Source of the DNA: Candidatus Poseidoniales archaeon | GTDB taxonomy: Archaea; Thermoplasmatota; Poseidoniia; Poseidoniales; Poseidoniaceae | Assembly: GCA_012270265.1 (NCBI GenBank) | Contig: JAAXIR010000262.1 | Location: 1 to 19,178, forward strand | Length of the DNA stretch: 19,178 bases | Direction: 5' to 3' | In this document: positions 1 through 19,178 of the stretch, piece by piece | Position numbering within the stretch: the first letter of the stretch is position 1 | Layout of the letters: each line of letters opens with the position of its first letter | Translations under genes and position numbers: made by a program | Notes under the pieces: model-generated | Told to the model about the DNA's origin: nothing | What the model saw: only the letters and a program-made list of their open reading frames with translations | Databases searched by the model: none

Positions 1-302
1 AAACGAAGACGAAGACAAGCAAACGCGCTTCGACGACATGGGATGTCATTGCCCGAGGAGAACATGAAACCCTCCTGAACGTCGTCATCGAGACAGGACG
101 TCGTCACCAGATACGCGTTGCTCTTGCTGAGAGCGGGACGCCGGTTGTTGGCGACAAAATGCATGGAGCAACGACGAACCTTCATGGACGTATCTGTCTG
201 CATGCTGTGGCCCTTGAATTCCTACATCCTGATACTGACGACCCTGTCCGATTCGAGTCTGAATTCAATCCTGCTTGGAGGCACGGATTGAAGAACCCTT
301 GA
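1..302 (+). CDS. RluA-family pseudouridine synthase, C-terminal fragment (5' part outside window)
   Basis: Frame 3 is open from the window edge to TGA at 300-302. My translation reads ...NVVIETGRRHQIRVALAESGTPVVGDKMHGATTNLHGRICLHAVALEFLHPDTDDPVRFESEFNPAWRHGLKNP*. This matches the conserved C-terminal block TGRxHQIR...GDxxYG...LHAxxLxFxHP of RluA/RluD-type synthases. It is missing from the supplied ORF track because it has no start codon in the window. Confidence 0.75.
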   Translation, partial: TKTKTSKRASTTWDVIARGEHETLLNVVIETGRRHQIRVALAESGTPVVGDKMHGATTNLHGRICLHAVALEFLHPDTDDPVRFESEFNPAWRHGLKNP

Positions 303-323
303 CATTACGGGATAACTGTTCAT

Positions 324-3257: not shown

Positions 3258-3295
3258 AGCCTTCCGTAGTGTTCAAAGAGCGTATGCGATGAACT

Positions 3296-6200: not shown

Positions 6201-6340
6201 ACCTCCATCTCATCGGTATGGTTTCAGCATCCTCAGAGCTGTTGATTGAGGACGGTTATGACACACTGATTCAAGCTGATGTTGAACAATTGACTGAATC
6301 CTGGAAAGGAGCATTGGACATGACGGGGGCGATTGAATGA
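3296..6340 (+). CDS. purL: Phosphoribosylformylglycinamidine (FGAM) synthase subunit PurL with a fused N-terminal tandem PurS-like region
   Basis: 1014-aa ORF. The PurL core is recognisable from PTDVELECLAQTWSEHCKHKIF (aa ~248-267), AETHNSPSALDPYGGA and GDPxxxK onward. About 200 residues precede the core. They contain two PurS-like repeats (VRVEVTPLQTEGMRDVLGDVVQRQL... and VTVGFKPGVTDNPGAAANDGFKVLF...). Position 3296 is GTG. The in-frame ATG at 3314 (MSVQDVRVEV) is an equally plausible start. Confidence 0.92.
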   Translation: MFGSEPMSVQDVRVEVTPLQTEGMRDVLGDVVQRQLFADHGIDVGKVRSIRGYLIRSTYSASEIEPHVQDIFSDPIIEFGATNTSLLEDQNFFPIPPSLTVTVGFKPGVTDNPGAAANDGFKVLFPEGESTISTYISYAFLELPDGTDHTWLASTLFNGLIEKSILTTKEQLETNQATHLTFPERPTIVRQAPAIINLEVADEELVRLSNEGLLALNLNEMQTIRDHYRDEATRTARTNAGISPDAPTDVELECLAQTWSEHCKHKIFASKIHHVDTETNEDTTIDSLFKTHIMKPTHDMAKEVDWLLSVFHDNSGVIAWNDDWSICMKAETHNSPSALDPYGGAMTGIVGVNRDILGTGLGARPIANTDVFCFGPPDWTGELPSTLFHPSRVLRGVHAGVRVGGNESGIPTINGSIVFDERYIGKPLVYCGTVGLMPRRLADGRESHEKNPTPGDLVYMVGGRVGSDGIHGATFSSLELTDESPSSAVQIGDPITQKKMMDMLLEARDACLITCTTDNGAGGLSSSIGEMAEYTNGCEIDLGKVPLKQQGLSSWEILVSESQERMTVAVSPKDKDAFEALANLHEVEATQVATFTDTGYFHVKHGEETVAYLPITFLHDGVPQLELESEWIPPQHELFIAPTGLDQSKLLMEMLARPNIASKETWVRQYDHEVIAQTVVKPFVGVERDGPGDAGLIAPIHGDSQGLVISCGIAPRYSDIDAGAMVAASIDEAVRNAVCVGVDIDKMAGLDNFCWPDPIESEKTPDGKFKLAQLVRANRELERVCRAYRLPCVSGKDSMKNDYGVWPNKISIPPTMLFSLFGNQPDVRKTATSNFKHHGERIYLVGTTYDELGASEVAFHLRERGEVSGIGGQVPLLENPEGQLEVYRKLSTAIQSGLIRTAHDCSEGGLAIALAEMCIGGRCGAFIDIDGIGPGDAFSRLWSESLGRIVVSVEAEHEVAFVEMMEGADLHLIGMVSASSELLIEDGYDTLIQADVEQLTESWKGALDMTGAIE

Positions 6341-7170
6341 GTCAAGACGTCAAGGTTTGCGTTCTGTTTGGCTTCGGAATCAATTGCGATCGAGAAACTG
6401 CAGCAGTGTTCGAGATGGTTGGCGGCATATCGGAACGTATCCACGTGAACCGTCTTGTACAAGGTGAAAGAAGCCTATCTGAGTTCGACATACTTGCAGT
6501 ACCTGGTGGTTTCTCATTCGGAGATCACCTTGGAAGCGGACGTCTTCTCGGAAATCGTCTTCGATTCGCACTACGTGAACAATTGCAACAATTCGTCACT
6601 GATGGAAAACCAATCATCGGCATCTGCAATGGATTCCAAGCTCTCGTAAAGACAGGGCTTTTGCCAGGCCCAGCAGATGCTTCACTCGAACCCGATCTTG
6701 TACAGCGGGCGAGCCTTACTCTCAACAATACGGGTCGTTACGAGGATCGATGGGTCACATTGGAATTCGATTCGGAAAGTCCGTGCATTTGGACGAAAGG
6801 AATCCAGAGGATTGAGTGCCCAGTTCGCCACGGCGAAGGGCGATATGTTATGCCAACAGAACAAGATCTCGACAATCTGCAGTCGAGCCATCTGCTAGCG
6901 GTCCGATACGTTGACCCTACAACCCCGGTTGGTGAGGGAATTCAAGACGAATTGTTGCCGTTCCCAATGAGTCCGAATGGAAGCATGAGAAACATTGCAG
7001 GAATCTGTGACTCGACGGGTCTTGTGTTTGGATTAATGCCGCATCCAGAAGCCTTCTACAGCATGTGGCTTCATCCCGAACACACATCGATGGATCTCGA
7101 TGATGATTGGGAAGGTGAAGGATTGCAAATCTTCCGAAATGCGGTTGAGTACGTTCGTAGTCAGCGGTGA
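6337..7170 (+). CDS. purQ: FGAM synthase glutamine amidotransferase subunit PurQ
   Basis: 277-aa ORF. The start overlaps the purL stop (ATGA at 6337-6340). It has the class-I amidotransferase nucleophile elbow GICNGFQAL and the His/Glu pair in MPHPE. The N-terminus KVCVLFGFGINCDRE is typical of PurQ. Confidence 0.93.
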   Translation: MSQDVKVCVLFGFGINCDRETAAVFEMVGGISERIHVNRLVQGERSLSEFDILAVPGGFSFGDHLGSGRLLGNRLRFALREQLQQFVTDGKPIIGICNGFQALVKTGLLPGPADASLEPDLVQRASLTLNNTGRYEDRWVTLEFDSESPCIWTKGIQRIECPVRHGEGRYVMPTEQDLDNLQSSHLLAVRYVDPTTPVGEGIQDELLPFPMSPNGSMRNIAGICDSTGLVFGLMPHPEAFYSMWLHPEHTSMDLDDDWEGEGLQIFRNAVEYVRSQR

Positions 7171-7176
7171 CCAAGA

Positions 7177-8184
7177 ATGAGTCGTCGGCAAGACATCGAT
7201 CAGATTCGAGGTCTTGCCATTCTTCTGATGATTATGGGACATGCTGCAGCCACATGGGCGCCGGCAGATGCATCAACAACATCCTTACTCGCTCTTATCG
7301 TTGCAAGTCTTGGAGGTCTAGCAGCACCGTTGTTTGTAACTGTTGGAGGTTGGGTCACTGTTCAATCAACATGGACGTTACGAAAAGCAATGATTCGATT
7401 CGTCTTTTTGATGATTGCACAGTTTCTCGTCAACATCACTGCATCCCATCTCTTTGATCCATTCACACCGGGCGTGCTCTCTCTGTTTGCTATCCTGTAC
7501 CTTTTGGCGCCAATATGGATCCGGATTTCACGGAACAGCATAGCATTTGGAGCAACCCTTGTGCTCATTGGAATCATCAATACCGCATTCTCACCAGGAG
7601 ATTCCTCTCTATCATGGAATGACAGAATTGAGGCGATAACAATCATCCAGTTTCTATCTCATTTACTGGTAACAGGGACATACCCACTGTTCCCATGGAT
7701 GTTCTTCTCGATTCTTGGTGCAGGTATCAACATACATGCTCCAACAATCCGAAGACTTAGTCTAGTGATCGTATCAGGATTGCTTCTCTGCACATTGTTT
7801 CTGTATGAATCAATACAGACAAGCATTCCATTCGCCCAACCCCGAGGAGAGGCCATACTGACCTTCTTTCCAGCGAACACTCCGTTTCTTATCGGTGCGT
7901 GTACTGGTGTTCTGATCCTATGGCTACTCCTCGAGAACCGTCTACCATTACGTGGTCTACATCATTTAGGACAGCTTTCCCTCACACTCTACCTTGTCCA
8001 TTTTATCCCAATTTACCTGGGATCAGACGTAGTTTTAGCGTGGTCTTCTGCTGTACCAGTTGTGATTACGTTCACGCTGGTATGGTGGCCTTTGAGCGTG
8101 TTCTGGAGAACACGGTTTCCAACATACTCACTCGAGTATGCGTTACGACAGATGTCTCGCCATGAAGAGGAGAGGGCGCCGTAA
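7177..8184 (+). CDS. Polytopic membrane protein, DUF1624 (HGSNAT-like) / acyltransferase-3 superfamily
   Basis: 335 aa with about 9-10 hydrophobic helices. The N-terminal signature IDQIRGLAILLMIMGH resembles the (L/I)DxxRGxAxxxMxxxH opening of DUF1624 and acyltransferase_3 proteins. GGTGA lies 6 nt upstream of the ATG. Substrate is unknown. Confidence 0.55.
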   Translation: MSRRQDIDQIRGLAILLMIMGHAAATWAPADASTTSLLALIVASLGGLAAPLFVTVGGWVTVQSTWTLRKAMIRFVFLMIAQFLVNITASHLFDPFTPGVLSLFAILYLLAPIWIRISRNSIAFGATLVLIGIINTAFSPGDSSLSWNDRIEAITIIQFLSHLLVTGTYPLFPWMFFSILGAGINIHAPTIRRLSLVIVSGLLLCTLFLYESIQTSIPFAQPRGEAILTFFPANTPFLIGACTGVLILWLLLENRLPLRGLHHLGQLSLTLYLVHFIPIYLGSDVVLAWSSAVPVVITFTLVWWPLSVFWRTRFPTYSLEYALRQMSRHEEERAP

Positions 8185-8196
8185 GGCGCCCTCCCC
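8169..8196. terminator. GC-rich hairpin at the junction of convergent genes (possible bidirectional terminator or RNA-stabilising structure)
   Basis: GAGGGCGCC (8172-8180) pairs perfectly with GGCGCCCTC (8185-8193) around a 4-nt loop GTAA. The loop contains the TAA stop of the 7177-8184 gene. Two further G:C pairs (8169-8170 with 8195-8196) follow one mismatch. The hairpin sits 32 nt from the rhodopsin stop on the other strand. No oligo-T tract follows on either strand, so a terminator role is uncertain. Confidence 0.4.
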
Positions 8197-8227
8197 AGTC
8201 ATGACATGCTGTAATCTATCTCTCTAC

Positions 8228-9118
8228 TCAAGCGGTAGCTTCGGCAGCCTTCTTGGCTCCCATCCATGCTACGACACCGAATCCGATCTTGTTGATCATG
8301 TCAGCGATGTTGTAAGCAATACCCATCCAGAGTTCGCCTGCTTCGCCAGCGTCGATGATAGCGACTTCTGGGCTGAAGAGGTAACCTGCTGGGTAGATGA
8401 TCCATCCAACAACGATGAACCATCGGAGAGCGTTTGCGCTCCACATGAGTTCTGGGGCGATCTTGTCGTTATCGACACCCTTACCACTTGACCATGGTGT
8501 ACCGGTTGCGACAATGATCATTGCCCATCCCATACCTCCGAGGATTAGTGCTAGGTACTTGTCCATAAGACCAGCTTCACCAGCGTATCCGAATCCGATC
8601 ATGATGAGTGCACCAGTGAAACAGATTCCTGTGAATCCCATTCCAAGGGCCTTTGCATCAGTGATAGCATCCTTGCCGACGAGGCTTGGGAACTTGAGTG
8701 CCATGAGTGGAACAGTGATGATCCAGTCCATGTATCGGTACTCAATGGAAACTACTTGGTGCTCGACGTAGACGCCACGCATGTAGTAGTAGTGGAACGC
8801 TGCGATACCAACGATCAATGCGGAGATTGTCATGGTTGTGCGGTGTTCCTTACCGACGTTTCCGCGCTCGCTCATGAAGAAGACGAACGCTGCACCCATT
8901 GAGATGTAACCAACGAAGAACAAGAAGAAAGTGACGAGTTCTAGTCCGTCGTTCTTGTTATCGTTTAGCCAATCAGCGGTAGCAGGGTTGGTTGTTTCAG
9001 CAGCTGCTGGAAGAGCAACTGCTGCAAGTGCAAACAGCATAACAGCGAGTACAGCGCTGTTTCGGCGGTTCAACTTCAGGCTTCGTAGTTTTGATGAGTT
9101 TTCATACTGCATGTTCAT
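8228..9118 (-). CDS. Proteorhodopsin-family microbial rhodopsin (DTK motif, Met at spectral-tuning site)
   Basis: Seven hydrophobic helices. Helix C is RYMDWIITVPLMALKF and helix G is AYNIADMINKIGFG, with the retinal Schiff-base Lys codon at 8288-8290. The PR-type His is present in IAAFHYYYMRG. The track ORF extends to 9226, but that extension overlaps the upstream ABC gene and covers a TATA box. I therefore call the ATG at 9116-9118 (MNMQYENSS...). It is followed by a signal-like hydrophobic stretch AVLAVMLFALAAVALPAAA. The ATG at 9110-9112 is an alternative. Confidence 0.92.
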   Translation of the reverse strand: MNMQYENSSKLRSLKLNRRNSAVLAVMLFALAAVALPAAAETTNPATADWLNDNKNDGLELVTFFLFFVGYISMGAAFVFFMSERGNVGKEHRTTMTISALIVGIAAFHYYYMRGVYVEHQVVSIEYRYMDWIITVPLMALKFPSLVGKDAITDAKALGMGFTGICFTGALIMIGFGYAGEAGLMDKYLALILGGMGWAMIIVATGTPWSSGKGVDNDKIAPELMWSANALRWFIVVGWIIYPAGYLFSPEVAIIDAGEAGELWMGIAYNIADMINKIGFGVVAWMGAKKAAEATA

Positions 9119-9141
9119 CAAGGTGTAATGATTTCGTCGCG

Positions 9142-9149
9142 AATATATA
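9142..9149 (-). promoter_or_regulatory. Archaeal TATA-box-like element for the rhodopsin gene
   Basis: The minus strand reads cgaaaacgaaag-TATATATT-cgcgacgaaatcattacaccttg-ATG. The AT box ends 23 nt before the ATG and is preceded by a purine-rich BRE-like stretch. No Shine-Dalgarno motif is present. This geometry fits a leaderless or near-leaderless transcript. Confidence 0.45.
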
Positions 9150-9170
9150 CTTTCGTTTTCGCGTGTAACA

Positions 9171-11000
9171 TTATCTGTCGATTTTTTCACCCATTTGAAC
9201 GGACCACAGAGAGGCATACTTACCATTTAGAGCGAGTAAATCCTCATGTTTTCCATGTTCAATTACTTCTCCACTTTCTAACACCAAGATGGAATTTGAA
9301 TGACGAACGGTCGATAGTCTGTGCGCGACAATAATCGTCGTTCGATCCTTACTGATTCGAGCAATACTTCGTTGCAATGCGGCTTCTGTTTCATTATCGA
9401 CTGCAGACGTCGCCTCATCGAGAATGAGGAATGGGGCATCTTTCAGTACTGCTCGGGCAATGGCGATGCGCTGACGTTGGCCACCGGAGAGCCGATATCC
9501 ACCTTCGCCAACAAACGTATCCCATTGATTGGGAAGTTCTTCGATGAAGTCAAACGCTTCAGCGGCGAGTGCCGCTTGCTTAACATCTTCATCCGTAGCA
9601 TCGTTTCGACCATATCGAATGTTTTCTAGGATCGATGTAGGAAAGAGTGTGACGTGTTGTGAGACAAGAGCAATGGAATGACGCAGCGACTCAAGAGTGT
9701 ATTCTCTAATGTCTTTTCCTCCCCAAGAGATACTTCCGCCGTTGGGTTCAACGAAACGTAAGAGGAATCGAGTCAGCGTGGTTTTACCAGAACCGGTCGA
9801 TCCAACAACTCCTAGGGTTGTTCCTGCCTCTATTTCGACGTTGAAGTCGTTGAAAAGGGCTGAACGCTCTGGATATGCAAAACCAACATCTTCGAAGCGT
9901 ATCGGTGATTGTTTCGCTACCTCTTCCTCCAATACATGTTCTCCATCGGTCACCGTGCGAGGTTCATTGAGGAGCGTAAGGATACGAACAGAGGAAGCCA
10001 TAGCACGCTGGTATAAGTCGAAAGTCTCACCCAAGCGAGTAAGTGGCCATAGCAGCCGTTGTGTCATGAATACGAGAACGGAGTATGCGCCGACTGCCAA
10101 CACACCGTCCAATGCAAGTCGTCCCCCGAGGAGAAGTGTTGCCGTAAATCCGGCTAAGATTGCCATCCGGATGAGTGGAACGAATGCTGCTGAAAGACGA
10201 ATGGCTGATCGATTTGCACTTCTGTATTCTTCTGAAAGAGACCGAACACGCTCCAGCTCCAACGTCTCATTGGTGAACGACTGAATTGTGGCCATTCCTG
10301 TTAGATCGTTCTCGAGCAGCGCATTCAATTGTCCCGCAGTTGCTCGAACATCCCGATATCGAACCTCAAGTTTCTTCTGATAAAGGAAGGAACCCCAGAG
10401 GATAATAGGAATCGGAAGTACTGCAAAGAGTGCAATTTCCCATGAGAGATACAAGAACACAGCACCAACAACAATCACGGTTGTTGTTACCTGCAAGAGA
10501 TCGTTTGCACCTTTGTCGAGAAACCGTTCAAGTTGGTTGACATCATCGTTCATGATGGCGAGCAGATCGCCCTTCTGGTGTTCATCAAACCACGTCATGG
10601 ATTGGTTTTGGACGTGATCAAAGGTCGTAATCCGGAGATTGTGTTGCACTGTTTGAGCGAGATTACGCCACAAAACCGCGTAGAAGTATTCGAACAATGA
10701 TTCGAGACCCCATATGACAAATGTTGCTACAGCTAGGACAATGAGTTGATTCCAAGGGTCGATGATGCCCCACTGCGCTAGTAGAGAATCTTCCTTCTGA
10801 ACGACAACGTCAACAGCAACACCGATAAGGAGAGGGGGGGCCAAATCCCAGATTTTGTTGAGGATGGAACAAAGTATGGCAAGGCGAATCTTTCCTTTTG
10901 GAGCATCGGAACGCGAGAGGATGGTTCGCAAAGGCCTCTCAACATCAACCATGGTTGAGGCTTCTTCGATACGGTATGTGAATTCTTGCTCATGAATCAT
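9171..11000 (-). CDS. ABC exporter, fused permease/ATPase (MsbA/MdlB-like, ABCB type)
   Basis: An N-terminal six-helix transmembrane domain is followed by an NBD. The NBD has Walker A GSTGSGKTT, signature LSGGQRQR, Walker B FLILDEATS and H-loop IVAHRL. The track ORF runs to 11153, but that part overlaps the divergent gene. The ATG at 10998-11000 (MIHEQEF...) gives a typical 609 aa and has AGGA 6 nt upstream. Confidence 0.9.
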   Translation of the reverse strand: MIHEQEFTYRIEEASTMVDVERPLRTILSRSDAPKGKIRLAILCSILNKIWDLAPPLLIGVAVDVVVQKEDSLLAQWGIIDPWNQLIVLAVATFVIWGLESLFEYFYAVLWRNLAQTVQHNLRITTFDHVQNQSMTWFDEHQKGDLLAIMNDDVNQLERFLDKGANDLLQVTTTVIVVGAVFLYLSWEIALFAVLPIPIILWGSFLYQKKLEVRYRDVRATAGQLNALLENDLTGMATIQSFTNETLELERVRSLSEEYRSANRSAIRLSAAFVPLIRMAILAGFTATLLLGGRLALDGVLAVGAYSVLVFMTQRLLWPLTRLGETFDLYQRAMASSVRILTLLNEPRTVTDGEHVLEEEVAKQSPIRFEDVGFAYPERSALFNDFNVEIEAGTTLGVVGSTGSGKTTLTRFLLRFVEPNGGSISWGGKDIREYTLESLRHSIALVSQHVTLFPTSILENIRYGRNDATDEDVKQAALAAEAFDFIEELPNQWDTFVGEGGYRLSGGQRQRIAIARAVLKDAPFLILDEATSAVDNETEAALQRSIARISKDRTTIIVAHRLSTVRHSNSILVLESGEVIEHGKHEDLLALNGKYASLWSVQMGEKIDR

Positions 11001-11051
11001 GAAATTCCTTAACAACTCTCTGCTACACACGACCATCAACGGGTGAATGGA

Positions 11052-11849
11052 ATGTGGATGCATGACGAGCCAATGCTCCCTCGAGACGTATCTCGAACGA
11101 AACACATCACCCTCATCGATCCGGACAAACAATCTCCAGAAGTTGCAGCACAACGTGCGCTTGTAGCTGTTGAGTGTGGCACATCTGCTATTTTCGTGGG
11201 TGGGTCAACTGATACTGGCAGCAATATTGTCGATGCAACTTGCGCATCCATTCAGGAAGCCTTCGAACTTGCAATGTTTGCAGCCAGCCAACATCCTGAT
11301 GCTGACGAAGAGATGTGGAACATTCCAGTGATCTTGTTTCCAGGTGGAGCACATGCTATGTCTGCAAAAGCAGACGGAATTTTGTTCATGATGCTGATGA
11401 ACAGCACTTCACGCCGCTTCCTAATTGATGAGCAACTCACAGGTGCCCCATATATTGCTCAAGCAGGTCTTCAAACCATTCCAACCGGATACATTGTTTG
11501 TGCTCCAGGAGGTGCAGTTGGTGAAGTCGGACAAGCGGACCTGATTCACCCAGACGACTCAAAACTCGTTTCAGCATACTGTCAAACAGCCGAAATGTAC
11601 GGTTTCTCAACCGTGTATCTTGAAGCGGGCTCTGGCGCATCATCACCAGTTTCACTGGATCTCATCAAGACAGCAAAATCATCCATGCAGTGTACCCTCA
11701 TTGTCGGTGGAGGAATACGTACTCCAGAACAAATGAAAGCTGCTGCAGATGCAGGAGCAGACTACATTGTTACTGGAACAATTACTGAAGAATTCGATGA
11801 CCTACAAGTACTGAAAGAGCGACTACAATCACTCATCAGTGTTCTCTGA
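11052..11849 (+). CDS. Geranylgeranylglyceryl phosphate synthase (GGGPS/PcrB family), archaeal ether-lipid synthesis
   Basis: Motifs seen are HITLIDPDK, FVGGSTD, YLEAGSGA, IVGGGIRTPEQ and YIVTGT. By recollection the protein aligns along its length with Thermoplasma-type GGGPS. The ORF opens at GTG 11043. I prefer ATG 11052 because GGTGA (11042-11046) lies 5 nt upstream. ATGs at 11058 and 11073 are also possible. Confidence 0.85.
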   Translation: MWMHDEPMLPRDVSRTKHITLIDPDKQSPEVAAQRALVAVECGTSAIFVGGSTDTGSNIVDATCASIQEAFELAMFAASQHPDADEEMWNIPVILFPGGAHAMSAKADGILFMMLMNSTSRRFLIDEQLTGAPYIAQAGLQTIPTGYIVCAPGGAVGEVGQADLIHPDDSKLVSAYCQTAEMYGFSTVYLEAGSGASSPVSLDLIKTAKSSMQCTLIVGGGIRTPEQMKAAADAGADYIVTGTITEEFDDLQVLKERLQSLISVL

Positions 11850-13109
11850 CTCATCTTCATAGAGAACAGGATCTCCACTACCGCCAGGCGAAGGTGGGCG
11901 AACATCATCCACATCCATTCCTTGAGGTAGTTCAGATTCCTCAACACCCAAATCAACGGTTCCACCTTCTGCAAGGTTACGCATATCATCAGCATCAGGT
12001 GTTGAAAGTGTACGTTCAACATCAGGACTGTTCGCATACGCTTCTCGCTTGGCCTCTCGGGCATCATGACCACGTACCAAGGAAAGGGAGTCAGCAAAGA
12101 CACGTCCAACAACTTCCCTTGTTCGCTCACCCCGACGGACGCTGGTCACCTCTTGCATAGCAACAGCGTTCTGAGATTCCAATTCACGGATTTCAGCAAC
12201 GCGGTCTGTGAGAGCCGCCTCAAGATCGGTAATGGTGAGTGACATCTGTTGGATACGCTCATCACGCTCGAATACATCGGTGTGAAGACGTCGCTCACGT
12301 CGACGTAGAGACTCATATTCCCGATTTCGCTCAAGGAGCCTTCGCTTCATTTCTTCGATTTGTTCCACCAAATAGTCGTGCTCAGCGGAAACAGATCGAG
12401 GACCCTGCATGACGCGTTCGAGTTGCTCTTCAAGGTCTGCAAGACGCTTGTCACGGGCATCGAGGAGTCCACGCATTCGGTCAGCGATATCACGCAAACG
12501 TTGACGCTCTTCTTCCAAAGCATTGTTAGCGGCAACTTCCGCATCGTATTGAGCAGATTTTTCTTCAAGTTGATGTTTCAATGAGCGAACTTCATCCGCG
12601 GTAACCGAAGTAAGCCCTGCATCCGCGGCCTTTTCTAAGGCCTCAACCATGAGCCCCATACGGCCCTCCATTTCTGCAATGACTTCATCTTGCGAAACAC
12701 TCAGAGCCCTCAATTGTTCGACTTCTTCATGAAGAGCGTCTTGTTGTTCCTTGGACAAGGACGAAGCTTGGGCATCGAGCTCTTGTCGAGTATCATTCAA
12801 CAATCGATCAAGGTGAACAATACGTGCTTCCGCCTCTTTCAACTGCTCTTCGGATTCGTGAAGGCGTTGAATCTCAGGGGCAACCTCGTCTTCGCGCTCA
12901 GCGAGATCGAGTTCCAAGACTCGTAGTCGTTGCTTGATTGTGACAACTTCATCGTTGCGTCGCCCAAGCTCATCCCAAGCGATCAAGACTTCTTCGACAA
13001 GCTGTTCAATTGGGTAACTTTTCAGCATCCCTTCAAGAGCAGCTCTGTCGTTTCCAGAACTGGTTTCTGAACCTCGAGAGGCATCTGGGTTCGGAGCGCC
13101 AAGCGTCAT
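11829..13109 (-). CDS. Long coiled-coil protein with acidic disordered C-terminal tail, function unknown (candidate partner of the adjacent actin homologue)
   Basis: 426-aa ORF. Residues ~55-340 are rich in E/R/L/Q/A, heptad-like and almost free of Pro and Gly (e.g. LRVLELDLAEREDEV, EEQLKEAEARIVHLDRLLNDTRQELDAQ, RLADLEEQLERV, EEMKRRLLERNREYESLRRRERRL). The last ~65 residues are acidic and Pro/Gly-rich (...DVDDVRPPSPGGSGDPVLYEDESENTDE). I recognise no enzymatic motif. It lies 92 bp downstream of the actin gene on the same strand. Confidence 0.8.
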   Translation of the reverse strand: MTLGAPNPDASRGSETSSGNDRAALEGMLKSYPIEQLVEEVLIAWDELGRRNDEVVTIKQRLRVLELDLAEREDEVAPEIQRLHESEEQLKEAEARIVHLDRLLNDTRQELDAQASSLSKEQQDALHEEVEQLRALSVSQDEVIAEMEGRMGLMVEALEKAADAGLTSVTADEVRSLKHQLEEKSAQYDAEVAANNALEEERQRLRDIADRMRGLLDARDKRLADLEEQLERVMQGPRSVSAEHDYLVEQIEEMKRRLLERNREYESLRRRERRLHTDVFERDERIQQMSLTITDLEAALTDRVAEIRELESQNAVAMQEVTSVRRGERTREVVGRVFADSLSLVRGHDAREAKREAYANSPDVERTLSTPDADDMRNLAEGGTVDLGVEESELPQGMDVDDVRPPSPGGSGDPVLYEDESENTDE

Positions 13110-13153
13110 ACAGGGAACTATCGAACCTCAACCACTCTTGAACCTTCCCTGTG

Positions 13154-13177
13154 AATCAGGGCATTAGGCGCCTGATT
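13154..13177 (-). other. Small hairpin in the actin / coiled-coil intergenic spacer
   Basis: AATCAGG (13154-13160) and CCTGATT (13171-13177) form a 7-bp inverted repeat around a 10-nt loop. The stem is short, there is no adjacent T-tract on the coding (minus) strand, and the function is unknown. Confidence 0.2.
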
Positions 13178-13201
13178 TTGGCGTTGCTTGGATAAACCAA
13201 A

Positions 13202-14206
13202 TCAGTTGATGGAGGTGTACATGTCGTCAGGCATTTCACCTGCGAGCATGAGTGCACCTTCAGCGACCTTTTCCAATGGGTTTTCGACGCACCAAACGTT
13301 GACATCACCAATGTCCGAGATTTCTCGAGCAACTCGCTCAGCGAGCCCTTCGATGAGGGATCCTCCACCGGAGAGAATGATGTTGTTGCGGAGAACCGGT
13401 TGGTACTCAGGGTCTGCTTCAGCAACAATGCGCTTGATGGCGTTACCGACCTTAGGAATCAACAGTTCACACGCCTCTTGAATGAGGTCGCCAATGTCGA
13501 CATTCTGGCTCTTACCATCAACAGAGAGTGAAACCTCAACGGTTCGAACGTCGCCACCGACGTAGGAGGATTCTTCTTTCCACTTTCGGACCATGTCCTT
13601 GGTGATTTGCGCTCCAGTGAACTTCTTTGCGATGAGGTTCTTTAGTTCAAGATCGAGCCAATCTCCAGCTTCCTGGATGGTGACTTGATCCTCATCGGTA
13701 GGGAATGTTCCGTGGATTCGAGCAATGTCGGTTGTACCAGCGCCGATATCGACGACAATGGAGCCACCGATTTCACCAATTGCAAAGGCTGTTGCAAACG
13801 GTTCAGTAACGACCATGATTGCATTGACTTGGCCACGTAGAGTTGCTACGAGATTGCTCTTATCGGTAAATGAAACGTGACTCGGAGAGCAAATGACGCC
13901 AAAGACCTCGTCGAACTCTTCTGGATCGACGGTTTCGATAAGGTGAGATACGAAAGCCTTTGCAGCAGCAAGGTTGGCTTCATCATCCTGAGCAACACCG
14001 GCTGCCATTGGGCGGTAGAGATTGCAAGCAAGTTTGTTTTTCAGTGCATCAGCGCCAAAGAGGACGTCACGCTTGAGGAAGTTTCGTGCTACGGGGTCTT
14101 TTGGTCGCCCAACCACAGTTTCAACAGAGTGCATGGCACCTGCGCTTGAAGCAATGGTTGACTGAAACGTTCCTAGGTCAATTCCAACATATAATCGTCC
14201 GCTCAT
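13202..14206 (-). CDS. Actin-fold filament ATPase, MamK/MreB clade (MamK-like)
   Basis: 334 aa counted from ATG 14204-14206. The ORF opens 9 nt earlier at GTG, and GGTG lies 6 nt upstream of the ATG. The actin/ASHKA nucleotide motifs are present: phosphate-1 VGIDLGT, phosphate-2 VVDIGAGTTD, adenosine ILSGGGSLIEGL. Additional blocks are VVGRPKD, VVTEPFA, EDQVT, PEYQ, VNVWCVENP and GALMLAGEMP. These mirror MamK as I remember it (VVGYPKD, VVSEPF, IVDIGAGTTDI, PEDQVT, PEYQ, AGGGSRIRGL, ANVTCVKDP, GALRLAEELP). Confidence 0.85.
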   Translation of the reverse strand: MSGRLYVGIDLGTFQSTIASSAGAMHSVETVVGRPKDPVARNFLKRDVLFGADALKNKLACNLYRPMAAGVAQDDEANLAAAKAFVSHLIETVDPEEFDEVFGVICSPSHVSFTDKSNLVATLRGQVNAIMVVTEPFATAFAIGEIGGSIVVDIGAGTTDIARIHGTFPTDEDQVTIQEAGDWLDLELKNLIAKKFTGAQITKDMVRKWKEESSYVGGDVRTVEVSLSVDGKSQNVDIGDLIQEACELLIPKVGNAIKRIVAEADPEYQPVLRNNIILSGGGSLIEGLAERVAREISDIGDVNVWCVENPLEKVAEGALMLAGEMPDDMYTSIN

Positions 14207-14248
14207 CTTGAACACCTTCTCGGATAAACCACCGTGGATGCCATAAGG

Positions 14249-14268
14249 TTTGAAGATAGCCCTTCAAA
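14249..14268 (-). terminator. Short hairpin downstream of the protease gene (weak terminator candidate)
   Basis: TTTGAAG (14249-14255) and CTTCAAA (14262-14268) form a 7-bp stem with a 6-nt loop, about 26 nt after the protease stop. No T-run follows on the minus strand. Confidence 0.2.
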
Positions 14269-14293
14269 ACCATGAACAATCTTCGCTCAATTT

Positions 14294-17143
14294 TCATACA
14301 TGCCGAGACTTTCGGAGAACAAATTGGGCAATCAGAGAAATGACAATTGCGGCAACAAGAGACGACCATAGTGCAGCATTCGGCCATGAGCTGGCACGGT
14401 TCTTTTCTTCTTGAATCGGCTGTGAAACGTGGATTGTGATCTGTTCAGACATATAACTCGTCGATGCGGGGGCAGTCCACGAACTAGAATTCAAATCAGT
14501 TGCATCAATTACAACCGTCCAATTTCCAGCCGCACTCAACGGGAAGAAATCTTGACTCACGTTTACGGAGCACATATTCCAAGCATCATCGAGAACAAGC
14601 ATTGTGCACACGTACACGGTTCCTGTCTGTGAGCCGAGACGTTCGAGAACAATCGTTACGTTAACGGGATCCTCATCGAGAATCGAATAGAGGATGGACA
14701 TGGTTTCATTATCGTGCTGCTGCAACGATACCTCGTCCAAGAACACCCGAGGAGCTTCGTTTTGTTGTGCACAACCTTGTTGCGTTACTGGAACGTCCAG
14801 AGGCGTCATCAAACAATCATCGAAGTTGTCTTCGACACCGTCTTCATCGAGATCATCAATGCATCCATCCATGTCCAAATCCCAGCCGAGTGCACTGACG
14901 AAAGGACAGACATCGCCTTCGTACGGTACACCATCTCCATCCGCATCGGAGTGATTCAATGGGTCGAGTTCAACACCACGGACAGCAAGACCAAATCCAA
15001 GTCGATCGCCCTCTATACCCAATGTGCCGGGTAAATTTCCAGGCGTCACATAGCGCCCCGTTACGATGATATCAACATACTCAATCCCGTTGAGCGTTTC
15101 TTCATCGAGGTGAATGCCGACGGTGGTTTCGTTGGATGGAGGGAAGGCTGTGGTATTGAGGTGGTCAGCAAAATCATAGTACAGCATTGAGCGACCATCG
15201 CTTCGATAACTCTCTCCAACAGCAAAGCGACCGTCGGGTAAACGAACCATGAGTTGAACATCGTCGACGAGATGTGGCTCTGGCTTTGCTTGTGTGGACA
15301 ACCGTACATCAAGCGCTTCACCATTGAGGATGAAACGTTGCTGGAAGACATCATTTGTTGCAAGGAACGGCCCGACCGCACCCTCACCATCCCAACTGTT
15401 CTGCATGAGATATTCGATTGGTTGTGATGCTCCGATCCGCCCTTCGAATTGCTCGGAAGGGCTACCGTCCTCTAACCGATAAGAGTCATGAATCCAAACA
15501 TTTGAAACTGGTCGTTCGCCATCAGCGGAGGGTAATGCTAGACGCTCGAAATCGATAATTTCGCTTAGATTGAGTATGCCCCAGCCGTCGTATACATTTG
15601 GAGCACCGGACCCTCCGTCCCCCCCATTTCGATGTGCCTCAGCCAGTGGTGTTGCAGAGAGCGAAAGGAGAGCCTTCATCATTGGTGCAGATGGTGTGAA
15701 TCCATCACCGAGTAAGATGTTGTGTTGCGGGATATCAGTTCCAAACCAAGGCGCCCGTTCCGCCAATGAATGCCCAGTGAGAGTCTCGTTGTGTCCCGTT
15801 AGCCAACCTTCTTGGACCATTTGTTGAATCACACTTGCGTATGTTGCAGCCATTGGTGTGGACATGCTGGTTCCGCTCAATGTGTGCTGTCCTGTGTTGT
15901 ATGTTTCTGGAGAACCGTCCGAGCGAGCGGAGACAATCGATACGCCTGGTGCGAGAGCGAAGATGCCACGTGTTTCGGCATCGGTTGGCCCATGGACCGA
16001 TGACATCCACCGTTCCGTATCAAGATCCTTTGTAGCGGCCCCGATGGCAATGACGTTCCTCGCATTGGCTGGTTCAAGAACCAAGCCACCGTTGTTCCCA
16101 GGCGCAATCAATGGTAAGGTCCACGGGAACTCACGCGTGAAGGCATCAAAATCACCAGACCTAAGGGTATAATCCGTGGTATCATCGCCCCATGAATTGG
16201 AATGGAGATATCCGCCATACAAGGCTGATTCAGCAAGTAAGAGGTCGACGTCTGGAGGTTGCCAGCCTTGTTCGGAGACAATGTCTTGAACGACCAATTG
16301 AGATCCATAACCGAGGGACATGATTGAGGACGGAATGCTGTTTTCAATCGCTGTTGCGATAGGATGGCAACCAAGAATTCCTGCGGTGTGCGTGCCATGA
16401 CGGTAATCTGCGTGGCCTGAACTATCCCATCCATCAATGGTTGTGTTCACATGCAACAACTTCCGATGATCGATGCCGATTGACGCATTCGAGATATTGC
16501 GGAAACAGGAATGGTCGGAATCAATTCCCGTATCTGCAACCCCAATCACAACACCAGAACCGTTGAGTCCAAACGTCCATGCAGCAGGGTGCGTATCCGT
16601 AGCAGATCCAGAGAGAATCGCTCCTGAATTGAGATTTCGACCACCAGTAGGCAATACTGGCTCTAGCCAAAGGACACCGTCAATGTTGGCAAACCATTCC
16701 ATATTCAGATTGGAAGCCCATGTTATCTCGACGGATGGCAAATAGCCATCATTCACTGAGCCTACAAGGCTGTTTCCAATTAGCTGGATGTGCTCATGAA
16801 TATCTACGACAACGCTGGATGGAAGTCCTGGCTCAAGAACAACCCGAACCGTTTGCCCTTCGTGTGGAAGCGATTTCCATTCTGCCTTTTCAGAATTTAA
16901 TTCACTGGCAGTTGGATGTTGAGCCCCCTTTTCCAATTTCCAAACGAGTAGTTCAGATGGAGAAATCGAGCGTAACGGTGTGAGTCCAAATTGGTGCAAC
17001 ATATCCCAATCCGACTGTCCCCATACTTGACCTTCCGGAAGCAGAAGAAGAGCTTCTTCGCCAGAGTAGATCGCCTCATCATGCACATTTCCGATTGGGA
17101 GAGGCGCAACGAGGAGGAGCACTGCTAAGAGAAGACTTCGCAC
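14294..17143 (-). CDS. Secreted, membrane-anchored subtilisin-like serine protease (peptidase S8) with Asp-rich Ca-binding-type repeats
   Basis: The catalytic triad motifs appear in the order D-H-S: GVADTGIDSDH, HGTHTAGIL, LSGTSMSTPMAA. The oxyanion region is APGNNG. An Asp/Cys-rich block DADGDGVPYEGDVCP...DLDMDGCIDDLDEDGVEDNFDDC spans 14765-14950. The C-terminus has one hydrophobic helix followed by a basic tail (LWSSLVAAIVISLIAQFVLRKSRHV). The ORF opens at TTG 17200. I prefer GTG at 17141-17143 because it yields a canonical signal peptide (M)RSLLLAVLLLVAPLP. GTG 17164 is another option. Confidence 0.88.
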   Translation of the reverse strand: MRSLLLAVLLLVAPLPIGNVHDEAIYSGEEALLLLPEGQVWGQSDWDMLHQFGLTPLRSISPSELLVWKLEKGAQHPTASELNSEKAEWKSLPHEGQTVRVVLEPGLPSSVVVDIHEHIQLIGNSLVGSVNDGYLPSVEITWASNLNMEWFANIDGVLWLEPVLPTGGRNLNSGAILSGSATDTHPAAWTFGLNGSGVVIGVADTGIDSDHSCFRNISNASIGIDHRKLLHVNTTIDGWDSSGHADYRHGTHTAGILGCHPIATAIENSIPSSIMSLGYGSQLVVQDIVSEQGWQPPDVDLLLAESALYGGYLHSNSWGDDTTDYTLRSGDFDAFTREFPWTLPLIAPGNNGGLVLEPANARNVIAIGAATKDLDTERWMSSVHGPTDAETRGIFALAPGVSIVSARSDGSPETYNTGQHTLSGTSMSTPMAATYASVIQQMVQEGWLTGHNETLTGHSLAERAPWFGTDIPQHNILLGDGFTPSAPMMKALLSLSATPLAEAHRNGGDGGSGAPNVYDGWGILNLSEIIDFERLALPSADGERPVSNVWIHDSYRLEDGSPSEQFEGRIGASQPIEYLMQNSWDGEGAVGPFLATNDVFQQRFILNGEALDVRLSTQAKPEPHLVDDVQLMVRLPDGRFAVGESYRSDGRSMLYYDFADHLNTTAFPPSNETTVGIHLDEETLNGIEYVDIIVTGRYVTPGNLPGTLGIEGDRLGFGLAVRGVELDPLNHSDADGDGVPYEGDVCPFVSALGWDLDMDGCIDDLDEDGVEDNFDDCLMTPLDVPVTQQGCAQQNEAPRVFLDEVSLQQHDNETMSILYSILDEDPVNVTIVLERLGSQTGTVYVCTMLVLDDAWNMCSVNVSQDFFPLSAAGNWTVVIDATDLNSSSWTAPASTSYMSEQITIHVSQPIQEEKNRASSWPNAALWSSLVAAIVISLIAQFVLRKSRHV

Positions 17144-17208
17144 ATGCTTATGCTGCTCTTCCACGTTGATGAAACACGCGATGCCCTCGCCAACTCTCAA
17201 CCATCGCG

Positions 17209-17215
17209 TTTAAAT
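17209..17215 (+). promoter_or_regulatory. Archaeal TATA-box-like element for rplX
   Basis: The sequence reads cgcg-TTTAAAT-caagaaacgagtcgccttggattc-ATG. The box ends 24 nt before the rplX ATG and no SD motif is present. The spacing matches that at the rhodopsin gene. The TTTAAA core is palindromic and lies in the divergent spacer shared with the protease gene. Confidence 0.45.
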
Positions 17216-17239
17216 CAAGAAACGAGTCGCCTTGGATTC

Positions 17240-17512
17240 ATGAAGGCCTTCCGTGTTGATGGACAAGCCCCGTTCGGTCGTCTCCGACAGAAATTCTCGC
17301 TCGATGTTGTAGCATCCTCAAAAGCCGATGCTGAGCACCGTGTGTACTCGATTATCGGCTCCCGCCACAAGGCAACTCGCCGTGCAATCAACATCGATTC
17401 TGTAAGCGAAATCGATCCAAGAACATCTCTCGAACCAAGCGTTCTTCACCACTTCCGTGAGGAAATCGCAGCTGCTGGTGGCACCATTGCTCCAGTGGCT
17501 GAAGAAGAGTGA
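17240..17512 (+). CDS. rplX: Large-subunit ribosomal protein LX (L18Ae/eL20 family)
   Basis: From ATG 17240 the protein reads MKAFRVDGQAPFGRLRQKFSLDVVASSKADAEHRVYSIIGSRHKATRRAINIDSVSEI. This matches the archaeal LX pattern MKxFxVxG...F.KEV.A....A.E.VYS.xGS.HK..R..I.I..V.EI. The 32 codons upstream in the track ORF overlap the protease start and promoter region, so I reject them. Confidence 0.85.
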   Translation: MKAFRVDGQAPFGRLRQKFSLDVVASSKADAEHRVYSIIGSRHKATRRAINIDSVSEIDPRTSLEPSVLHHFREEIAAAGGTIAPVAEEE

Positions 17513-17568
17513 TTGCGCCATCGCCGCATTCATGAAGGTCGCACCATAGGCGTTGATGAGGCGGTCTT

Positions 17569-18117
17569 GTGGAACAATCTGAACTTCAACGAACAGCACG
17601 ACTCGTTGAAATGAATCGTGAACGGTTTCACGAAGTTCAAGAACGAATCGAACAGGTGATCAATGTTCTCGGAGAACATGATGTTACGGCGACGATTCTC
17701 GAAACACTGTCGAAAAAAGACCACGATTCAGAAATGAAGATGCACGTCTCCATTGGAGCCGGTGTAACGCTTACCTGCCAACACCCTGGTGGCGGAGAGG
17801 GAACCACCATTGTCGATCTTGGAAGCGGTATTTTTGGCGAACGAACTTGGTCGGATGCGGCATCACTTACTCGAGAACGAATGGAAGAATTGGGAACACT
17901 CCTCGAGAGCCTTCAATCGCAAAGCCAGCAACTTGAATCAACCATTGCTACATTGGCTCAAACCTTCACTGCAGCTGCAGAAGCACAGACTCAACCCGAA
18001 CCATCCACGGCTGTGAACGAAACTGAATCTACGCCAGAACCAGCAGAGGTACCAGTTTCGAAGCCAAAGCGACGCAGAGGCGGTATGTTTGGTAACGAAC
18101 TAACCTTGGATGATTAG
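17569..18117 (+). CDS. pfdA: Prefoldin alpha subunit (GimC alpha) with extended C-terminal tail
   Basis: 182 aa. The architecture is an N-terminal coiled coil, two beta-hairpin blocks (HVSIGAGVTLTC ... TTIVDLGSGIFGERT) and a C-terminal coiled coil (ERMEELGTLLESLQSQSQQLESTIATL), as expected for alpha-class prefoldin. The GTG start at 17569 has GAGG 7 nt upstream. ATG 17608 is an alternative. Its position between rplX and ftsY is the common archaeal arrangement. Confidence 0.85.
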   Translation: MEQSELQRTARLVEMNRERFHEVQERIEQVINVLGEHDVTATILETLSKKDHDSEMKMHVSIGAGVTLTCQHPGGGEGTTIVDLGSGIFGERTWSDAASLTRERMEELGTLLESLQSQSQQLESTIATLAQTFTAAAEAQTQPEPSTAVNETESTPEPAEVPVSKPKRRRGGMFGNELTLDD

Positions 18118-18125
18118 GTGAGAAC

Positions 18126-19178
18126 ATGGGCCTCTTCGATCGATTCAAGAAGCGCGTCAAAGAGGTCGCTGAAGAAGTCGATTCTGACGCTCTCACTGCA
18201 ATGGAAGATTCAGAAGAAGGCGTAGCAGCACTTGAATCATCCAAGCAAATCGAAGAAGATTGGGAGGATGATGTGCCTGAAATCGTAGAGGAAAGATTCG
18301 AAGAACCATCTGTTGAATCCTCGGATGACGACTGGGATGATTGGGACGATGAAGACGATGACATCGCCCTGCCTGTAACACTCACAAAGAAAGAGCGCAA
18401 GCGGCTTGAGAAGCTGGAAAAGCAACGAGCAAAGGAATTGAAGCGGCGAAAAGCGACAACCATTGCAAAACCGAAGGGTTCGAAAGTCGACCTTTCGATG
18501 ATGCGCACGACAACAGGCCGACAACTCGTGGAAGTGAAAGCCGCTCCTCGAGGCTCATCAAAGAGCGCAGATATTGAAACCGAAGCCGGTTCAGTTTCCA
18601 TCGAACTTGGTGGAGGAATTGTTGAACAAGGTGGTCGAGTCATCAAGGCTGGAAAAGTTCTCGATGATCTCCTCGAAGAACTTGAATGGATGCTTCTTGA
18701 GTCTGATATCTCGAGTGAAGCAGTTACATCTGTTCTCGCTGCATTGCGGAAAAGTCTCGTTGGGGCACGATTGCGACGAGGTGCAGAACTTGCCAAGGTT
18801 CTCGAAGCAGCACTCAAGCGTGCACTTCGCAATCTTCTTTCAGCAGGATATTGGGATTTCGATGCTTCCGTTCAATCGTACTTGGATCAGGGCGATGCGC
18901 CAGTTGTCGTCATGCTTGTAGGTGTTAACGGAACTGGGAAAACAACCACTGCTGCGAAAATTGCGAACAGACTGCAGTCGAACGGCCACTCCGTTATTGC
19001 AGCAGCAGGCGATACATTCCGAGCCGGAGCAATTCAACAACTCGAATCGCATTGTGAGAACTTGGGTATTCGGTGCATTTCGAGTCAACGTGGCGGCGAT
19101 GCAGCAGCCATTGCTCGCGATGCCATTGAGTCGGCAAAGGCGAAGAACATCGACGTTGTTCTGGTTGATACAGCTGGA
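18126..19178 (+). CDS. ftsY: Signal recognition particle receptor FtsY (3' end outside window)
   Basis: The frame is open from ATG 18126 to the window edge (351 codons, my translation). It is absent from the ORF track because it has no stop in the window. The N domain includes LLEELEWMLLESDI. The G domain has G1 GVNGTGKTTTAAKIA, AGDTFRAGAIQQL and G3 VLVDTAG at the window end. GGTGA lies 5 nt upstream of the ATG. The first ~170 residues are a highly charged extension. Confidence 0.95.
   Translation, partial: MGLFDRFKKRVKEVAEEVDSDALTAMEDSEEGVAALESSKQIEEDWEDDVPEIVEERFEEPSVESSDDDWDDWDDEDDDIALPVTLTKKERKRLEKLEKQRAKELKRRKATTIAKPKGSKVDLSMMRTTTGRQLVEVKAAPRGSSKSADIETEAGSVSIELGGGIVEQGGRVIKAGKVLDDLLEELEWMLLESDISSEAVTSVLAALRKSLVGARLRRGAELAKVLEAALKRALRNLLSAGYWDFDASVQSYLDQGDAPVVVMLVGVNGTGKTTTAAKIANRLQSNGHSVIAAAGDTFRAGAIQQLESHCENLGIRCISSQRGGDAAAIARDAIESAKAKNIDVVLVDTAG

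Follow-up and report, generated by a model that had tools for sequence, protein, structure and literature searches.

Two adjacent genes in a 19,178-nucleotide stretch of a Candidatus Poseidoniales genome (GenBank assembly GCA_012270265.1, contig JAAXIR010000262.1, positions 1 to 19,178 of the forward strand; hereafter, the window), one for an actin homolog and the other for a long coiled-coil protein (hereafter, CC), probably represent an unstudied cell-skeleton system, with the link between the two proteins drawn from comparison of genomes. The explanation toward which we lean is that these genes constitute a chromosomal module of Poseidoniales, in which a MamK-like filament actin works together with a lineage-specific, modular coiled-coil partner. 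An earlier, sequence-only reading of this DNA had described two co-oriented minus-strand genes 92 bp apart; both open reading frames (ORFs) are confirmed at the positions given here along with the parts of CC that are discussed below.

13202-14215, minus strand: actin homolog gene, encoding a MamK-like actin-fold ATPase
13110-13201, minus strand: spacer between the actin and CC genes, 92 nucleotides (nt)
11829-13109, minus strand: CC gene, encoding 426 amino acids (aa)
12621-13061, minus strand: CC module 1 (residues 17-163), the sole part retained in homologs of about 150 aa
12030-12599, minus strand: CC module 2 (residues 171-360), two long helices split by GPRSVSAE, missing from the truncated homologs
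12255-12404, minus strand: near-invariant core of CC (residues 236-285), GPRSVSAEHDYLVEQIEEMKRRLLERNREYESLRRRERRLHTDVFERDER, from the conservation profile of 44 sequences
11832-11924, minus strand: acidic disordered tail of CC (residues 396-426), with a predicted local distance difference test score (pLDDT) below 50

Both ORFs are real rather than chance frames, as indicated by hundreds of conserved homologs, the listings of which are dominated by near-identical Poseidoniaceae proteins, and by low rates of nonsynonymous substitution (dN). In the comparison of the window with locus L010 (related loci are numbered with the prefix L), dN is 0.016 for the actin homolog and 0.060 for CC, with a synonymous rate (dS) above 1.3; dN/dS of the actin homolog is about 0.01-0.07. 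Both genes are under strong purifying selection. Identity of the actin homologs is 84-100% across 80 Poseidoniaceae species and 65-76% in more distant lineages, and that of CC is 67-99% within Poseidoniaceae. Both genes change more slowly than the flanking genes for geranylgeranylglyceryl phosphate synthase (GGGPS), prefoldin and an S8 family subtilase (S8).

A MamK-like actin homolog

As judged by sequence comparison, the actin homolog belongs to a sister group of MamK on the filament-forming side of the superfamily and is neither a certified MamK nor an MreB. The closest family is MamK: the NCBIfam model NF040964 aligns with the protein over model positions 1-330 of 335 with 333.5 bits (E-value 1.3e-99), yet this score stays below the curated cutoff of 400. 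In the PDB, the MamK structures 5jyg, 5ljv and 5ljw match residues 5-333 with an E-value of 6e-60, at 33% identity over 330 columns with one 1-residue gap; the next matches are BeeR, MreB and eukaryotic actins. BeeR is the second-best match in both the hidden Markov model (HMM) and the PDB searches, with a score (206 bits, NF053558) that does not reach the cutoff of 530. The window protein starts 4 residues ahead of the first strand and lacks the disordered N-terminal domain of the BeeR type. The MreB models TIGR00904 and NF010539 yield 66-77 bits and do not reach their cutoffs of 293-366, the Pfam MreB_Mbl model passes its cutoff of 27 with 78 bits, and Pfam Actin scores 60 bits. Because the cutoffs of the MreB models are missed and only the broad MreB_Mbl family is matched, the public label "rod shape-determining protein MreB" is imprecise. 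Among the archaeal families, NCBIfam salactin (37 bits, cutoff 400) and Pfam Volactin (23 bits, cutoff 35) both fail, and the match to Pfam Salactin is marginal (27.4 bits, cutoff 27.1) and ranks behind that to MreB_Mbl.

The phosphate-1, phosphate-2 and adenosine motifs (DLGT, DIGAGTTD and SGGGS, respectively) and the equivalent of the catalytic residue E143 of MamK are invariant in the family. The MamK-like topology is thus accompanied by the nucleotide-binding and catalytic residues, with the fold part coming from a low-confidence AlphaFold model (pLDDT 55; a shallow alignment of 19 sequences) that served for a coarse Foldseek check only; this search retrieved MamK, BeeR, MreB and actin, in that order. 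The full-length MamK match and the retained ATPase motifs bear out the previous description of this protein as a complete actin-fold ATPase of the MamK/MreB clade. The ORF opens at a GTG codon at 14215, and most homologs consist of 334-335 aa, so the likely start is the ATG at 14206, which would give 334 aa.

A modular coiled-coil protein with a conserved core and tail peptide

The AlphaFold2 model of CC, built from 44 aligned family members (mean pLDDT 80; predicted template modeling score 0.23), consists of helices at residues 18-30, 34-117, 120-163, 171-234 and 243-360, with a small element and the tail after them. The breaks between the modules and within module 2, AGLTSVT (residues 164-170) and GPRSVSAE (residues 235-242), are conserved. 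Hydrophobicity at the heptad a and d positions of the two long helices exceeds that of shuffled sequences (z-scores of 3.1 and 2.7), and the last 45 residues contain 14 aspartates and glutamates vs 1 lysine or arginine. Heptads, structural model and tail composition all agree with the sequence-only description of a 426-aa coiled-coil rod ending in an acidic disordered tail.

The most conserved part of the protein is the core. In the 44 sequences, which come from Marine Group IIa (MGIIa), MGIIb and a high-GC lineage and share 35-88% overall identity, the core columns are invariant or at least 90% conserved, with the consensus GPRSxSAEHDYLxEQIEELKRRLLERNREYEALRRRERRLHxDVFERDER. This level of sequence conservation is well above the needs of a generic coiled coil. 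A second conserved element, the terminal peptide PGG[ST][GA]xP-x-hydrophobic-[DE]n (residues 408-420), in which P408, G409 and G410 are conserved to 90% or more, is embedded in the otherwise variable tail; by analogy, a conserved short peptide inside a variable disordered tail is typical of a docking motif. In the high-GC lineage (L081 and L165), the CC proteins are 527-547 aa long and contain a proline- and alanine-rich insertion of more than 100 aa before the conserved terminal peptide; the proteins of this lineage are singletons in a collection of 15 billion proteins.

Apart from its own relatives, CC shows no match in Pfam, NCBIfam or the PDB beyond coiled-coil noise, and a Foldseek search with the model retrieved nothing (best E-value 3.6), as expected for an elongated helical model; the suggestion that the partner is unlike known adaptors is in line with these empty searches. 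Pfam and profile searches detected no DNA-binding domain. The models of SMC, Rad50 and "chromosome segregation ATPase" score 16-33 bits, in coiled-coil regions only, with cutoffs of 300-729; an SMC or Rad50 identity can be rejected given that the ABC-type ATPase heads are absent and the protein consists only of a helical rod and a tail. A match of the core to the Pfam SAB (spectrin-actin-binding) family in two homologs (E-value 0.035; 14.6 bits vs a cutoff of 27) is noise. The crescentin rod model Rod_CreS scores 13-15 bits (cutoff 100), and the layout of a segmented rod with linkers is compatible with crescentin and other intermediate filament-like (IF-like) proteins. When 1.84 billion representative proteins were scanned exhaustively with HMMER, only 118 matched, all of them members or fragments of the family. 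On this sequence evidence, CC belongs to an orphan family confined to Poseidoniales and their close relatives.

Conservation of the actin-CC pair

Among 80 species genomes of Poseidoniaceae, CC follows the actin gene in the same orientation in all 79 loci that extend far enough, and 65 of the 66 loci with a measurable spacer have one of 92-95 nt; the one exception is L008, where two other genes intervene (see below). The adjacency extends to eight of nine more distant lineages, with GC contents from 36 to 70%, and thus holds well beyond the source genome. The arrangements in the distant lineages, including the exceptional one, are as follows.

L082-84, L169-171 and L172 (MGIIb-type): LX-S8-actin-CC-GGGPS, where LX is ribosomal protein L18Ae/LX
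L081 (3.0-Mb contig, GC 0.68) and L165 (GC 0.70): S8-actin-CC, with different downstream genes in L081
L168, L173 and L174: a partial actin gene immediately 5' of CC, with a different downstream gene in L173
L166 and L167: full-length CC beside an unrelated S8 gene on the opposite strand, with actin absent from the 2.7 kb available

The pair is therefore kept despite altered downstream neighbors in L081 and L173, and the lineages in which the CC family is found are the same narrow set as those of this actin homolog.

Truncated homologs of CC in loci that lack the actin gene

The representative search also detected complete proteins of about 150 aa whose similarity to CC is limited to its N-terminal third. 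An hhalign comparison aligns CC residues 17-160 with the entire small protein (99.1% probability, E-value 8e-19), which stops exactly at the first structural break of CC and accordingly is devoid of CC residues ~161-426, including the invariant core and the terminal peptide. A metagenome scan identified 80 loci of this kind (L085-L164; for example, the small CC gene at L122:6986-7480). These are Thalassarchaeaceae-type, mostly deep-water loci with the gene order LX-small CC-GGGPS and a prefoldin gene a few kb upstream; one member of the small CC cluster is labeled Candidatus Thalassarchaeaceae. In none of the 80 loci was an S8 or actin match found within 7 kb of the small CC gene; here, as in the L166-type genomes, absence of actin refers to the locus.

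A single deletion cannot account for both losses because the region coding for CC residues ~161-426 is at the end of the gene that faces away from the S8 and actin genes that are missing. Loss of the C-terminal part where actin is absent suggests that the C-terminal module and the tail are needed only together with actin, whereas the N-terminal module would have an actin-independent role. We argue that, among the genome comparisons presented here, this pattern is the best evidence of a coupling between actin and CC.

Conserved elements upstream of the two genes

An alignment of 64 distinct actin-CC spacers contains a conserved element, GGGAAGGTTCAAGAGTGGTT (core at 13135-13147), a motif that is unique in the window. 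The extended form, GGGAAGGTTCAAGWGTGGTT (13128-13150, minus strand), is located 30-45 nt before the CC start and is followed about 15 nt further on by CGATAG. The form AAGGTTCAAG, with at most one mismatch, is present upstream of CC in 39 of 39 loci and occurs at chance density elsewhere in these loci, so it was rejected as a general promoter motif of the region. The element is kept across lineages with GC contents of 36-66%, in MGIIb and upstream of the truncated CC genes, and has recognizable variants at 68-70% GC. Judging from this distribution, it is probably a promoter or regulator site specific for the CC gene. RNAalifold yielded no consensus pairs for the spacer and hence no conserved RNA structure there.

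Upstream of the actin gene, a different element, GGTGAACCTTGAAGG, is conserved 50-65 nt before the start (about 5935-5950 in L031-L080), with a diverged variant near 14241-14260 in the window. It holds the reverse complement of the 8-mer AAGGTTCA from the CC upstream region (28 of 40 loci). The case for a regulatory site shared by actin and CC is too weak: only the reversed 8-mer or a loose TTSAAGNGTGG pattern is common to the two regions, and this could be a coincidence. The window additionally contains a 13-nt direct repeat, TGGTTTATCCRAG (minus strand, TATA-like), one copy of which (14219-14231) precedes the actin ATG by about 13-25 nt and the other (13187-13199) lies 2 nt past the actin stop codon; it is not conserved beyond the genus of the window.

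Genomic neighborhood

The remaining genes of the window, where the GC content is 0.49 and no compositional break is apparent, are the following.

324-3257, plus strand: UvrA
3296-6340, plus strand: PurL
6337-7170, plus strand: PurQ
7177-8184, plus strand: acyltransferase
8228-9226, minus strand: rhodopsin
9171-11153, minus strand: ABC exporter
11043-11849, plus strand: GGGP synthase (GGGPS, PcrB; 146.6 bits with PcrB), convergent with CC
14294-17200, minus strand: S8 subtilase (Pfam S8, 75.8 bits) with TSP3-like repeats and a C-terminal membrane anchor
17144-17512, plus strand: ribosomal protein L18Ae/LX
17569-18117, plus strand: prefoldin

The 3' ends of the GGGPS and CC genes overlap by 21 nt; GGGPS is a member of the syntenic block, and we put forward no role for it in the proposed actin-CC system. 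The C-termini of the S8 proteins (14294-14400 in the window; L031-L082) have acidic ends (ENE, EQE, EEE) in many genera, loosely resembling the CC tail. The rhodopsin ORF includes about 100 N-terminal residues that precede the Bac_rhodopsin domain, and the ABC exporter ORF, which overlaps both the rhodopsin and the GGGPS ORFs, has about 90 residues ahead of its first domain; the true starts of both genes are probably internal to the ORFs.

Neither the window nor any of the related loci contains mam, mms or mad genes; no plasmid relatives and no viral-contig relatives were found; there were no meaningful matches to phage or defense families; and no centromere-like tandem or direct repeat arrays were found near the actin and CC genes. 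A plasmid, phage or defense origin was rejected for lack of support. The earlier impression of a chromosomal housekeeping context (GGGPS, protease and ribosomal protein) free of mam, plasmid, phage and partition signals thus holds. An actin locus 100% identical to that of the window is present in a contig of a Candidatus Poseidoniaceae metagenome-assembled genome (MAG; L001), which identifies the source lineage of the window as the family Poseidoniaceae of Marine Group II. Two other contigs with loci 98-99% identical to it (L005 and L009) were deposited in MAGs labeled "uncultured Rhodobiaceae bacterium" and "Salipiger bermudensis"; these archaeal contigs in bacterial MAGs are likely binning contamination.

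Comparison with known actin systems

By analogy, the actin-CC pair would work most like the MamK systems with their filament-organizing accessory proteins, and it also resembles crenactin with its arcadins. MamK is the best sequence and fold match of the window actin (33% identity, near-gapless, ATPase residues conserved), and passages of two papers describe it as working with acidic or coiled-coil, non-enzymatic proteins encoded nearby, namely MamJ, McaA/McaB, and Mad20/23/25/26 with Mad28 (PMC12748827; PMC10746226). The window differs in its archaeal host, in the absence of mam and mad genes from it and from the related loci, in the subthreshold score of its actin (333 bits vs 400), and in that CC has no detectable homology outside its own family. 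Two MamK-like proteins from outside the magnetotactic bacteria are described, in the passages concerned, as forming filaments: saltatorellin of Saltatorellota (bioRxiv 10.1101/817700) and BeeR of Verrucomicrobiota, the hallmark of which is a disordered N-terminal domain (PMC11929497). Like the window actin, they are relatives of MamK that serve non-magnetosome purposes; unlike BeeR, the window actin has no such N-terminal domain (206 bits vs 530), and no coiled-coil partner is mentioned for either protein in those passages.

Crenactin, salactin and volactin are, as in the present case, archaeal chromosomal actin homologs. Crenactin is regulated by the product of a neighboring gene whose C-terminal peptide binds the actin, according to work cited in a passage of PMC7613921, and the nearest family of salactin is also MamK, as stated in a passage of PMC10746226. 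However, the salactin and volactin models match the window actin weakly (37 vs 400 and 23 vs 35 bits, respectively), and CC is unrelated to the arcadins by the searches made, being much larger and having a rod architecture. The arrangement of head, segmented coiled-coil rod (its linkers conserved) and tail, in association with an actin homolog, is also reminiscent of crescentin and IF-like proteins. Crescentin is dependent on MreB. Its rod model, however, is at noise level on CC (13-15 vs 100 bits).

Proposed mode of action and alternative explanations

By analogy with MamK, BeeR and saltatorellin, the actin homolog would assemble into ATP-dependent filaments, either cytomotive or serving as a scaffold. 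CC would dimerize to form a segmented rod, the C-terminal two-thirds of which (the core at residues 236-285 and the terminal peptide) would engage the filament as a tether, a cross-linker or a regulator, and the N-terminal third (residues 17-163) would contact another, actin-independent cellular partner; CC would thus connect that structure with the filament. In the cell, the module would most likely serve cell shape or internal or cortical organization rather than plasmid or organelle segregation. A more elaborate version, which we consider tentative, is a hitherto unrecognized Poseidoniales cytoskeleton made of a MamK-like actin and a new rod family, in which the N-terminal module anchors to another cell structure and the C-terminal module and tail bind the filament, perhaps coupled across the membrane to the S8 surface protease, and which was secondarily dismantled in some deep-water Thalassarchaeaceae that keep the anchor module.

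Several observations weigh against a functional coupling of actin and CC, and most of these fit a different, rather unlikely but serious explanation, namely, that CC is an independent structural protein, such as an IF-like or crescentin-like scaffold or an organizer of the chromosome or the membrane, and is a mere neighbor of actin in a frozen block of genes. The whole block FtsY-prefoldin-LX-S8-actin-CC-GGGPS, which includes unrelated genes, is syntenic throughout the order; S8 is linked to actin, and CC to GGGPS, no less consistently than actin is to CC, and CC stays next to GGGPS even where actin is absent. Because the entire block is syntenic, perhaps by mere inheritance, the adjacency of actin and CC says little in itself about a functional pairing. 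The upstream element conserved for CC implies that this gene is probably transcribed independently. An insertion between the genes is tolerated in L008, where 2.2 kb (L008:7015-9291) with two unrelated genes, for a 473-aa polytopic membrane protein and a 228-aa protein, separate intact actin and CC genes; given this insertion and the separate CC element, actin and CC need not be co-transcribed. In one Poseidoniales lineage (L166/L167), full-length CC is found without an adjacent actin: in L166 (759-3946), the gene for a 389-aa CC with the tail motif comes after one for an unrelated S8 peptidase of 631 aa, which is encoded on the opposite strand. Part of CC also persists without a neighboring actin in the truncated forms, and the truncation pattern itself probably goes back to no more than one or two events in evolution. 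The head, segmented rod and tail layout is IF-like, with a weak Rod_CreS match that is far under the cutoff. An unrelated neighbor, however, would hardly be expected to lose residues ~161-426 cleanly in the same 80 loci where actin is lost, to remain paired with actin where the downstream flank differs, or to have a taxonomic range as narrow as that of this actin. The sequence-only claim of a dedicated partner thus stands in part: the adjacency is conserved and the truncation pattern agrees with it, whereas the block-wide synteny and the presence of CC without a neighboring actin do not. As for whether the CC family lives apart from actin, it does so in the 80 loci with the truncated form and, at full length, in L166/L167, but it is paired with actin in 79 of 79 Poseidoniaceae loci.

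An improbable extension of the preferred actin-CC module would make it a three-part, envelope-linked system, in which CC tethers filaments to the cytoplasmic tail of S8 and so positions a surface proteolytic apparatus. S8, actin and CC are co-oriented and occur together in every actin-bearing lineage, S8 and actin are missing jointly, and all the S8 proteins end in a transmembrane helix and a cytoplasmic tail, in many cases with a PPF or PAF motif and an acidic end. In the genus of the window, however, this tail is a stub of about 6 residues (RKSRHV) without the motif; moreover, no other gene of the block evolves as fast as S8 (39-91% identity, dN 0.27), and one deletion of adjacent genes could account for S8 and actin being missing together. 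It appears very unlikely that the pair is a DNA-segregation cassette of the ParM-ParR, AlfA-AlfB or Alp7 type, or a remnant of a mobile element, with CC as a centromere-binding adaptor. The combination of an actin with an adjacent non-enzymatic gene and a weak match to a PHROG "partition protein" family (E-value 9e-7) would be compatible with this possibility, but the repeat arrays, a DNA-binding domain in CC and relatives on plasmids or viral contigs are all missing, the chromosomal position is fixed across the whole order, and the best match of the actin is MamK, not ParM; a ParMRC-type partition cassette, in particular, is largely refuted by the lack of repeats, DNA-binding domain and mobile relatives. 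Equally hard to sustain is the idea that the actin homolog is a non-polymerizing enzyme or chaperone of the ASHKA superfamily, such as a sugar kinase, Hsp70 or an EutJ-like protein. Marginal matches to Hsp70, HscA and EutJ do exist (E-values 1e-4 to 1e-2), but those to the filament families are tens of orders of magnitude stronger (for MamK, 1e-99 with the HMM and 6e-60 in the PDB), the alignment with MamK is near-gapless, and the fold-search matches are all filament actins; profile and fold searches thus place the protein with the filament-forming families and not with sugar kinases or Hsp70.

Implications for Poseidoniales

A full-text search of open-access papers retrieved no description of this actin-CC pair for Marine Group II (MGII) or Poseidoniales, in agreement with the sequence-only remark that its author was not aware of a described cytoskeleton for the lineage. 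The present analysis corrects public annotations of both families, namely "MreB" for the actin homolog and "chromosome segregation ATPase", "SbcCD" and "myosin heavy subunit" for CC. Furthermore, the natural series of domain deletions in CC points to the fragment that may be relevant for actin, and both proteins are small and soluble-looking, which makes them tractable in vitro without culturing the organism.

Few archaea in the ocean outnumber those of Marine Group II, and in surface waters Poseidoniales are the most abundant planktonic archaea. To our knowledge, no member of this group has been cultured, and its cell biology is nearly unknown. If the proposed module of a MamK-like actin and CC is real, it would add an archaeal branch to the MamK-like actins and would indicate that this type of filament is used far beyond the positioning of magnetosomes. 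The combination of a highly constrained actin (dN/dS of about 0.01) with an order-specific partner would then provide a first handle on the cell organization of MGII.

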